Shown in pieces: positions 57,321 through 59,176 of a stretch of 64,000 nucleotides of DNA. Origin of the DNA: Candidatus Kapaibacterium sp. GTDB lineage: Bacteria; Bacteroidota; Ignavibacteria; Kapaibacteriales; UBA2268. Under the pieces are notes generated by a model. The model worked only from the letters and a program-made list of their open reading frames with translations. It was not told where the DNA came from and searched no databases. The stretch is taken from NCBI GenBank assembly GCA_963665665.1, contig OY762428.1:3392001-3456000 (forward strand), written 5' to 3'. Numbering within the stretch: position 1 is the stretch's first letter; each line of letters starts with the position of its first letter. A program made the translations under genes and the position numbers.

Positions 57321-58778
57321 ATGGAAATGCAGCTTTTTAACTCGCTTAGCAAAAATAAAGAAGATTTTAAACCCATTGATGGTAATAAGGTCAGGATGTA
57401 TTCCTGTGGCCCGACTGTTTATAATTATGCACATATAGGCAATATGAGGGCCTTCCTATTTGCAGACCTGATGCAGAGAGTACTACGGGTAGTCGGGAAT
57501 TATGATTTACAATGGGTAATGAATATAACAAATATCGACGATAAAACTATCCGCGACAGCGCTGTTGGAAGTGATGTCTGGATTGAAGACATGGGACAAC
57601 AAAAAGATGACCCTATGGCAAACCTCAAAATGCTGACAAATTATTATGAGAAGTCCTTTCTGGACGATATTTCAAAGCTTGGAATTAATCCCGATGATTT
57701 TAACGCTATGCCGCGTGCTACTGATTATATTGAACAAATGCAGAACCTGATAAGAAAAATATTTGAAAACGGTTTTGCCTATGTTTCCGAAGGATCAGTT
57801 TATTTTAACGTGGATAAATGGAGCAAGGCCGATACTTATGGGAAACTGCATAAAATAGATTTCGATAATTTCCGGGCAGGTGTTAGAATTGATGCCGACC
57901 AGTATGAACGCGAGCAGGTTTCAGATTTTGTTCTCTGGAAAGCAAAGAAAGACGGCGAGCCTTTCTGGGAATTTGAGATAGACGGCCACAACTGCCCCGG
58001 ACGCCCGGGTTGGCATATTGAATGTTCCGCAATGGAATATGATATTCTAGGAGTGCCTTTTGATATACACACCGGCGGCATCGACCTGAAATTCCCTCAT
58101 CACGAGGATGAAATTGCACAGAGTAAGGCAGGATACAATGTTGAGCCAACTGCATTCTGGTGCCATAATGAATTCCTGGAAGTTGAAGGCGAAAAAATGA
58201 GTAAATCCAAAGGCAACTTTTTTACTCTACGCGATTTGCTGGACAAAGGAATTGATCCGTTGGATATTCGTTTTGCCATGCAGTCACAACATTATGCAAC
58301 TACTTATAATTTTACCTTCGACGGCATTAGCGCTGCTCATAAGGGGCGCTTCAGGGTGCAGGAATATATATATGAGCTTTTTAACGAAGCTCCTGCCGAA
58401 GGAAAAGCAGTTGACGTTGAGAAGCTGAAATCAGACGTTTATAAAGAACTGGCAAATGACCTTCATACACCGAAAGCATTGGCAGTGCTATTCACTTTTA
58501 TAAACAATAACAACGCTAAGGAACTAAATACCGAAAGCCGTGAAAAGCTGAAAGGCTTTTTTACAGAGCTAAACAAAGTTTTTGCTATATGGGAAATATC
58601 TGAGAAAAAAGAAGTAAAAGCAGATTATCCGGCGGAAGTTCTTGAATGGGCGGAACAACGAATCGCAGCCCGTAAAGATAAAAATTGGGCTGAAGCTGAT
58701 AAGCTCAGAGATTTGATAAAAGAAGCAGGATATGTTGTAAAAGATACAAAAGGCGGATTCGAGCTGGAAAAGATATGA
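57321..58778 (+). CDS. cysS: cysteine--tRNA ligase
   Basis: [42 protein letters not shown]. Confidence 0.97.
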
Positions 58779-59176
58779 TTAGAAAAAACGTAAAACTTTT
58801 AGCCGTAGTGGCAATGATATCTATTCTGTCAGCTTCATCGGCATTTTCGATGCAGATATTTGTAAAGACTTTGACTGGAAAAACGATTACACTGGACGTT
58901 GAAGCAAGCGACAGTATTGAAAATGTAAAAGCAAAAATTCAGGACAAAGAAGGAATTCCGCCGGACCAGCAAAGACTGATATTTGCAGGCAAACAACTTG
59001 AAGACGGCAGAACATTGTCTGATTATAATATTATGAAAGAATCAACACTATACTTGGTACTGCGGCTTCGGCCACCAATCTCCGAACCGGTTCCGACACT
59101 TCCTGAATGGGGAGGTATAATATTGGGCCTGGCTCTTCTTCTATCAGCATCATATTTTACTTACAGGAAATTTTAA
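58775..59176 (+). CDS. secreted eukaryote-like ubiquitin with IPTL-CTERM-like sorting tail
   Basis: aa1-25 signal peptide (AFS|M); aa26-99 = ubiquitin 1-74 (nt 58850-59071); then [19 protein letters not shown]. Confidence 0.93.

Follow-up and report, generated by a model that had tools for sequence, protein, structure and literature searches.

A predicted exported ubiquitin with an exosortase-type tail, encoded beside cysS in a Candidatus Kapaibacterium chromosome

Results

A ubiquitin gene overlapping the end of cysS

We analysed a stretch of 64,000 nucleotides (hereafter the window) of Candidatus Kapaibacterium sp., which corresponds to positions 3,392,001 to 3,456,000 of contig OY762428.1 in assembly GCA_963665665.1. 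An open reading frame (ORF) of 133 codons plus stop at 58775..59176 (+) encodes a signal peptide, a ubiquitin domain and a putative sorting tail, and its ATG overlaps the stop codon of the upstream gene (ATGA). This upstream gene, at 57321..58778 (+), is cysS, encoding cysteinyl-tRNA synthetase (PF01406, E = 1.2e-91). Directly 3' of the stop codon of the ubiquitin ORF, at 59183..59226 (+), a terminator-like hairpin followed by a U run was recovered by folding (-16.6 kcal/mol, z = -4.56, 0 of 200 shuffles as stable); a consensus terminator scan missed it. The ORF is a real chromosomal gene that is probably co-transcribed with cysS, and its product is probably a ubiquitin mimic tethered to the cell envelope.

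The first 25 residues (58775..58849) form a Sec-type signal peptide with a basic n-region and a hydrophobic core, and with A at -3 and S at -1 ahead of Met1 of ubiquitin. Signal peptidase I is predicted to cut after A-F-S, as the original prediction had proposed, so that Met1 would be exposed; relatives share the same pattern at -1 and -3, as described below. The ubiquitin domain comprises residues 26-101 (Ub 1-76; 58850..59077), and PF00240 matched residues 28-99 (E = 6.1e-30, 103.2 bits against a cut-off of 25.4). When aligned to the polyubiquitin chains of the PDB (8q7r_U and others), the domain was identical to human ubiquitin at 69/76 positions (91%), or at 69/74 without residues 75-76. 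The differences are E16D, P19A, T22S, Q62M, H68Y, G75P and G76P, exactly the seven that had been listed from the sequence, and the alignment also bore out the claim that all seven lysines (6, 11, 27, 29, 33, 48 and 63) and L8, I44 and V70 are kept, with Y in place of H68. The whole protein contains no cysteine. The C-terminal Gly-Gly used for activation and conjugation is absent; the domain ends with LRLRPP instead of LRLRGG and runs on into the linker ISEP (residues 102-105; 59078..59089).

The linker is followed by VPTLPEWG, a motif of the IPTLxxWG type (residues 106-113; 59090..59113), which lies in the region matched by TIGR04174 (residues 106-123) and by a tail profile of the genome itself. 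A hydrophobic helix of 17 residues and the basic C-terminus RKF complete the protein (59114..59173), and hence the predicted order of motif, helix and RK was found. An AlphaFold2 model built from an alignment of 16 rows had a mean predicted local distance difference test (pLDDT) score of 90.4. In this model, residues 26-96 formed the ubiquitin beta-grasp, with strands and helix in the ubiquitin order and a block pLDDT of 95-96, flanked by helices at residues 2-19 and 111-132; the block pLDDT of residues 101-110 was 68.

Reality of the locus

The source genome is a single contig of 5.46 Mb with a completeness of 99.48%. One ubiquitin match was found in it (E = 1.2e-29) and none in 14 control genomes, and the match is far beyond chance. 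The GC content of the ubiquitin-coding part is 0.39, compared with 0.386 for the genome. A contig of 10,270 bases (runs X1 and X2, sample S1, study P1) spans 57300-59322 with 0 differences, and a contig of 973 bases from a separate study (run X4, study P2) spans 58350-59322 with 6 differences and 0 indels; the sole difference listed within the ORF, 59104 T>G, is synonymous. The junction between cysS and the ubiquitin gene is thus bridged by contigs of two studies.

Eukaryotic polyubiquitin is found on contigs of 300-1,200 bases in many prokaryote assemblies (for example L033, L046, L049, L059 and L061), which would agree with contamination or a chimeric assembly join here as well. We regard such an artefact as having a negligible probability: the chromosome is one contig, the ORF start overlaps the cysS stop, the cysS junction is bridged in both studies, GC resembles that of the host, and both the signal peptide and the tail are bacterial in character. 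Eukaryotic contamination was rejected on these grounds. The concern raised beforehand about chimerism was therefore cleared for the cysS side, while on the other side, towards the downstream WD40-type gene, no short-read contig bridges 59322-59489, a multi-copy stretch where read depth rises five- to eight-fold (164-228 versus 29-41). The short-read contigs break there, and the downstream junction is given only by the closed assembly.

This stretch falls within a genomic repeat. Positions 59256-59540, comprising intergenic sequence and the first codons of the downstream beta-propeller gene with a type IX secretion system (T9SS) domain, occur in about five near-full copies of 77-79% identity, and in up to 12 partial ones; the segment looks like a common upstream region and signal peptide of a paralogous gene set. 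The cysS-ubiquitin pair is flanked by genes for secreted proteins with T9SS-type C-terminal domains at 53313-57086 (-) and 59463-60743 (+), which scored 28.7 and 21.7 bits, respectively, with Por_Secre_tail. Judged from these flanking proteins and the exosortase-type tails described next, the organism has both T9SS and exosortase sorting, and the ubiquitin protein carries the exosortase-type tail.

A further observation came from the comparison of the X4 contigs with window positions 57300-60135. The segment 58350-59322, which holds the 3' end of cysS, the ubiquitin gene and the terminator, was 99.4% identical, whereas identity fell to about 92-93% in the flanks, with 66 differences over 820 bases on the upstream side and 27 over 367 bases on the downstream side. 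This could reflect recent exchange or a sweep of the segment, or a strain mix in the sample.

The tail and the exosortases of the genome

The original prediction had likened the tail to the IPTL-CTERM sorting signal and linked it to exosortase H. The curated model IPTL_CTERM (TIGR04174) gave the ubiquitin tail 12.4-13.9 bits against a cut-off of 20.5, and PF18203 was not matched by the protein at E <= 1. Since TIGR04174 at E <= 1 also matches 9 of the 14 control genomes, this score of the ubiquitin tail means little by itself. Eight ORFs of the genome exceed the TIGR04174 cut-off, and a motif scan of the genome found ten ORFs that end with [IV]PTLxEW[GA], a helix and basic residues, the ubiquitin ORF included, plus one chance match. 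When a profile was built from the eight passing tails, with the ubiquitin tail left out, it scored the ubiquitin tail at 33.3 bits (E = 7e-8, rank 11 of 44,016 ORF C-termini). Furthermore, the ubiquitin tail is 48% identical to the tail of the ORF at G000:C1:3283405-3284115, and both contain PTLPEWG.IILG. These comparisons support, at the level of sequence, the assignment of the ubiquitin tail to the genome's own IPTLxEW[GA]-CTERM set. The other IPTL-type proteins of the genome are ordinary secreted proteins that differ in size, with open frames of 47 to 712 residues.

Two exosortases were found in the genome, XrtN and an XrtH-like protein. The latter has 186 residues (L002:1456-2016, -), and XrtH (TIGR04177) was the best of 12 exosortase models for it, with 75 bits, short of the cut-off of 86; the protein does exceed the threshold of the general exosortase/archaeosortase signature (48.1 versus 23). 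Among other genomes that encode ubiquitin with an IPTL-like tail, all five tested had an XrtH match, three over the cut-off and one at 85.6. The 14 control genomes gave one XrtH match, and it did not exceed the cut-off. As a separate observation, XrtN (294.9 bits; L001, G000:C1:1575970-1579560) lies directly after its usual vWA/VIT-type target, which ends with VPEPEEW, a helix and RK.

Accordingly, the earlier claims on the tail held in part: the motif and the helix stood, the tail matched the genome's own tails, and an XrtH-like gene and further IPTL-CTERM proteins are present, whereas the curated cut-offs for the tail and for XrtH were missed. The sub-threshold scores of the tail and the exosortase, together with the short linker, would also agree with a plain C-terminal membrane anchor that is left unprocessed by exosortase, in which case ubiquitin would act in the periplasm on the inner membrane. 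We consider this quite improbable, because the motif and helix are nearly identical to those of tails in the same genome that pass the cut-off, because ubiquitin with an IPTL-type tail co-occurs with an XrtH match in all five other genomes tested, and because relatives carry devices for display on the outer membrane or wall.

A wider class of exported bacterial ubiquitins

One genome per prokaryote species was scanned for relatives, and the best 80 loci were read by eye. Relatives are encoded in at least 327 stretches of this species-genome collection. Among the best 80 loci, 51 were judged to have a hydrophobic presequence directly ahead of a single ubiquitin, and one (L014) was cut by the contig end. 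The remaining 28 were mostly polyubiquitin or ribosomal-fusion genes on very short contigs, taken as eukaryotic contamination, or had no presequence. The 51 include long contigs of cultured isolates or closed genomes, namely Dyella humi, Cohnella sp. OV330, Cocleimonas flava DSM 24830 and Arcobacter sp. 15-2, and the class covers about a dozen phylum labels. One label may be misbinned: the ubiquitin-domain protein of a 'cyanobacterium' is the same as that of a Methylophilaceae locus.

Fifty-five bacterial proteins with signal peptide and ubiquitin were then aligned (A1), comprising loci of the scan, one protein from a relative's genome and the window protein. A, S or G directly precedes Met1 in 53 of the 55, and A stands at -3 in 39. 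Ubiquitin is joined in these proteins to an autotransporter barrel, a T9SS tail, a Gram-positive wall anchor or an IPTL-type tail, and stand-alone forms also occur. Domain models identified an autotransporter beta-domain in 16 proteins, a T9SS tail in two, SLH in one and Glug repeats in three; IPTL_CTERM (NCBIfam) matched five proteins and the midcut-by-XrtH model six. In the anchor-only forms of about 130 residues ubiquitin is the only folded part, and it looks like the main passenger in the autotransporter forms of about 400-500 residues.

Mini-proteins composed of ubiquitin and an IPTL-type tail were found in at least five other genomes: metagenome-assembled genomes (MAGs) labelled Brevundimonas, Desulfatiglandaceae and Thermodesulfovibrio, Cocleimonas flava, and one genome of the window's own family. 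In addition, PF00240 is present in 100% and PF18203 (IPTL-CTERM) in 87% of the 54 members of an ESM Atlas cluster. Carriers are rare per genome, with a match in 3 of 40 relatives; in the phylum sample, 4 of the 400 further genomes match at E <= 1e-10, at least one of them by contamination. A search of 5.8 billion proteins with the tail region (residues 86-133) returned the window protein itself only, and no close relative of the exact junction. The same search with the whole protein was uninformative on architecture, as all 8,000 candidates scored passed and polyubiquitins dominate the best 120 matches; so was a search of a representative library, in which 6,219 representatives matched at E <= 1e-30 and the best 150 all had four or more matched stretches.

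Several loci deserve mention in their own right. A Rhodocyclaceae MAG contains a tandem pair of signal peptide-ubiquitin genes, whose products both have a choice-of-anchor U domain and end with a sorting tail, and the tandem pair of a Gemmatimonadetes MAG has identical GPTGQ..RRRRR tails, with one copy much more diverged (L013/L024). In one genome of the window's family, a gene for ubiquitin with a hydrophobic tail is broken by TAA stops (L086/L089, G005:C359), being either a decaying copy or a product of poor assembly. Another genome of the family encodes a signal peptide, ubiquitin and an IPTLPLWA tail at a locus with different neighbours (L087, G022:C7); it is only 45% identical and forms a very long branch, and its constraint seems relaxed. 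Eukaryotic polyubiquitin contigs in prokaryote-filed assemblies carry GG-joined repeats, often of the plant-like S19/D24/A57 variant; the loci taken as contamination of this kind are L033, L034, L046, L049, L059-L063, L067, L068, L071, L074, L078, L079 and L090.

Origin of the ubiquitin

A ubiquitin tree was constructed from 61 rows and 74 columns. Eukaryotic rows were mixed among bacterial ones, and eukaryotic rows and IPTL-tailed rows needed three changes each on the tree; as only 5 of the 57 inner branches are well supported, the tree decides neither the donor nor the number of acquisitions, nor between long residence and separate acquisitions. D16, A19 and S22 of the window protein recur in a polyubiquitin on a contaminant contig (L016). 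Of 600 stretches on viral contigs, 590 encode ubiquitin; most of them belong to giant-virus bins, the best identity is 71/74, and the combination of signal peptide and tail was seen in none of the viral-contig stretches inspected. All 83 viral-contig ubiquitins compared have Q62 and H68, from which the window protein departs with M62 and Y68; these two residues are derived. Y68 is also present in three other bacterial members. The ubiquitin is probably of eukaryotic or giant-virus origin and was refitted for export. As a side observation, a 15.7-kb IMG/VR contig filed as viral (L109) encodes a stand-alone signal peptide-ubiquitin that ends with GG and is the same as that of Collimonas (L028), which hints at a mobile element as the carrier.

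Selection on the ubiquitin core

We compared 53 ubiquitin coding regions, including that of the window. GC at third codon positions ranged from 0.12 to 0.89 and tracked the GC content of the surrounding locus (Spearman 0.92, n = 53). The synonymous proportion was 0.75 or higher in 85% of 1,378 pairs, with a median non-synonymous proportion of 0.09, and the median dN/dS was 0.056 in the 205 pairs with finite dS. The Nei-Gojobori script used here gave proportions above 1 for some pairs and composition differences inflate the values; hence these figures indicate saturation and are not to be read as distances. The tracking of host GC and the saturation of synonymous sites indicate strong purifying selection on the protein.

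The cores are 85-97% identical to eukaryotic ubiquitin. At least 90% of the 55 aligned proteins retain K6, K11, K27, K29, K33, K63, L8 and I44, whereas K48, H68, V70, R42 and residues 72-76 fall below this level. The contrast between the conserved core and the variable residues 72-76 indicates that the globular surface is constrained and the conjugation tail is not. A side observation concerns K48, the main lysine for degradation chains, which is replaced by Q, L, T, N, R or V in several members; K63 is retained as stated above.

Exosortase substrates are generally linked to biofilm- or floc-type material. The ubiquitin protein could likewise be a structural envelope or matrix protein without a eukaryotic target, for example in a biofilm or floc, in which ubiquitin serves as a very stable, soluble and protease-resistant domain. 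The ordinary character and varied size of the other IPTL-type proteins of the genome are consistent with such a role, as is the lack of a partner gene nearby. However, this explanation leaves unaccounted for both the high identity of the cores over saturated synonymous divergence and the observation that in the short forms ubiquitin looks like the chief or sole folded cargo, and we regard it as unlikely.

Discussion

Proposed route and function

We consider it reasonably probable that the window protein is an exported, exosortase-sorted and envelope-tethered ubiquitin mimic, which presents its ubiquitin surface to eukaryotic ubiquitin-binding proteins. In the route proposed here, the Sec pathway would carry the protein across the inner membrane, and signal peptidase I would cut after A-F-S, so that the mature N-terminus would be Met1 of ubiquitin. 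The XrtH-like exosortase would recognise the tail formed by VPTLPEWG, the helix and RK, and the same enzyme would serve about ten other IPTLxEW[GA]-CTERM proteins. Cleavage at or near the motif would leave the protein tethered to the envelope with ubiquitin as its only folded domain, and the authentic ubiquitin surface may then be shown to ubiquitin-binding proteins of encountered eukaryotes, such as grazers or hosts. We infer both cleavages, the final location and the target; the protein could end up on the outside of the cell or on the inner membrane, facing the periplasm. With a PP end and an extracytoplasmic location, conjugation would be impossible, and hence the protein would have to act as a displayed ubiquitin surface. 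Display of ubiquitin itself is argued as the function because ubiquitin is the sole or main folded part of the short forms and because relatives possess surface devices. A eukaryotic ubiquitin-binding target is favoured since nothing else obvious would explain the conservation.

Several points weigh against this proposal. Besides the sub-threshold scores of the tail and the exosortase, the spacer between ubiquitin and the motif is only about 4-10 residues long, and if the anchor is kept in the inner membrane of this diderm, ubiquitin would face the periplasm and not the outside. Y68, one of the two residues that depart from all viral-contig ubiquitins, lies within the I44 patch. No neighbour gene is common to the seven ubiquitin-plus-tail loci, so that no partner is indicated, and the analyses run pointed to no specific eukaryotic target. 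Among the sequencing runs listed as containing the stretch of the ubiquitin gene, none is recorded as RNA. Finally, the saturated synonymous sites could be due in part to separate acquisitions from different eukaryotes instead of long residence.

More tentatively, and as a possibility that we rate below the proposal for the window protein, near-invariant ubiquitin may be a recurrent surface ornament of bacteria in about a dozen phyla, taken from eukaryotes or giant viruses, preserved by selection, attached through every major anchoring route (exosortase H in the present case) and engaging the ubiquitin recognition of protist grazers or animal hosts. If so, bacteria would display at their cell surface a general kind of molecular mimicry that has so far gone undescribed.

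Relation to the literature

According to a commentary of 2012, a ubiquitin homologue had been identified in no bacterium other than Bacteroides fragilis (PMC3463472), and an abstract of 2018 makes the same statement (PMC6194340). A homologue of B. ovatus is added in the available sections of a paper of 2024, whose methods include a tblastn survey of bacterial homologues of the B. fragilis protein, BfUbb (PMC11467351). Thus, in the excerpts of the published accounts covered, bacterial ubiquitin is described only in Bacteroides, whereas the exported relatives found here are scattered over many phyla.

Our literature search found no report on ubiquitin with an exosortase or IPTL-CTERM tail, with an autotransporter or with other bacterial surface anchors; most subscription journals and all supplements were outside its coverage. 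The IPTL-CTERM literature found concerned the surface layer of Methylomirabilis. Within the literature covered by the search, both the architecture and the wider class are undescribed. The original prediction, which knew of no described fusion of ubiquitin with an exosortase tail, was therefore right as to the literature found, whereas the fusion is no singleton, as the mini-proteins of other genomes attest.

The ubiquitin of the window is far closer to the eukaryotic form than those described, appears to be tethered instead of released, and is linked to exosortase H, a system that is poorly understood. If display is true, the protein would offer a simple, antibody-detectable cargo for tracing the destination of exosortase H substrates, a testable case of bacteria that confront grazers or hosts with a core signalling protein of eukaryotes, and a natural experiment that shows which residues of ubiquitin stay under constraint when conjugation plays no part.

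Comparison with known systems

The closest described counterparts are BfUbb of B. fragilis and BoUbb of B. ovatus. According to the available parts of the reports, these are secreted homologues in which the signal-peptide cut exposes Met1 and GG is lost, and a eukaryote, or a virus of eukaryotes, is presumed to be their source (PMC5705921, PMC3352274, PMC11467351). The window protein has the same plan at both ends of the domain, that is, a signal peptide with a predicted cut at Met1 and loss of GG. It differs in its identity to human ubiquitin, which is 91% (69/76) compared with about 63% for BfUbb in the excerpts covered. Moreover, BfUbb is diffusible, and its activity requires a C-terminal cysteine that forms an intramolecular disulfide, as stated in the accessible text (PMC11901371). 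The window protein has a C-terminal membrane or sorting tail and lacks this cysteine, and only 2 of the 55 family members have a cysteine in the ubiquitin domain. The view in the original prediction that BfUbb is more diverged was upheld.

These differences bear on a further explanation, namely that the window protein is an antibacterial toxin of the BfUbb type held on the producer surface for contact-dependent delivery, which would be taken up by outer-membrane transporters of related bacteria and would block periplasmic prolyl isomerase. The common signal peptide, the cut at Met1 and the loss of GG (PMC5705921 and PMC11467351, in the parts available) agree with this explanation, and the host belongs to the wider Bacteroidota sample. 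On the other hand, the absence of the required cysteine (PMC11901371), its rarity in the family, and the tether and much higher identity of the window protein as against a diffusible protein of 63% identity argue against it. We give this explanation a low probability and favour, as above, a displayed ubiquitin surface.

The ubiquitin-extension proteins of Globodera nematodes are eukaryotic effectors that are delivered into plant cells and have no membrane tail. They are secreted, and, according to the passage available, a signal peptide precedes ubiquitin in them (PMC5705921), which they have in common with the window protein.

Compared with the IPTL-CTERM/exosortase H system (TIGR04174, TIGR04177 and PF18203), the window protein has the same [IV]PTLxEWG-type motif, hydrophobic helix and basic extreme C-terminus, and its genome likewise encodes several such tails, eight of them over the cut-off, and a small XrtH-like exosortase. 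It differs in that the ubiquitin tail is below the curated cut-off, with V for I at the start of the motif, that the exosortase scores 75 against 86, and that the cargo is a eukaryotic-type ubiquitin. With the other bacterial signal peptide-ubiquitin proteins, the window protein shares an AxA-type cut directly ahead of MQIF, a near-eukaryotic core and variable or lost residues 72-76, whereas the anchor varies with the host envelope.

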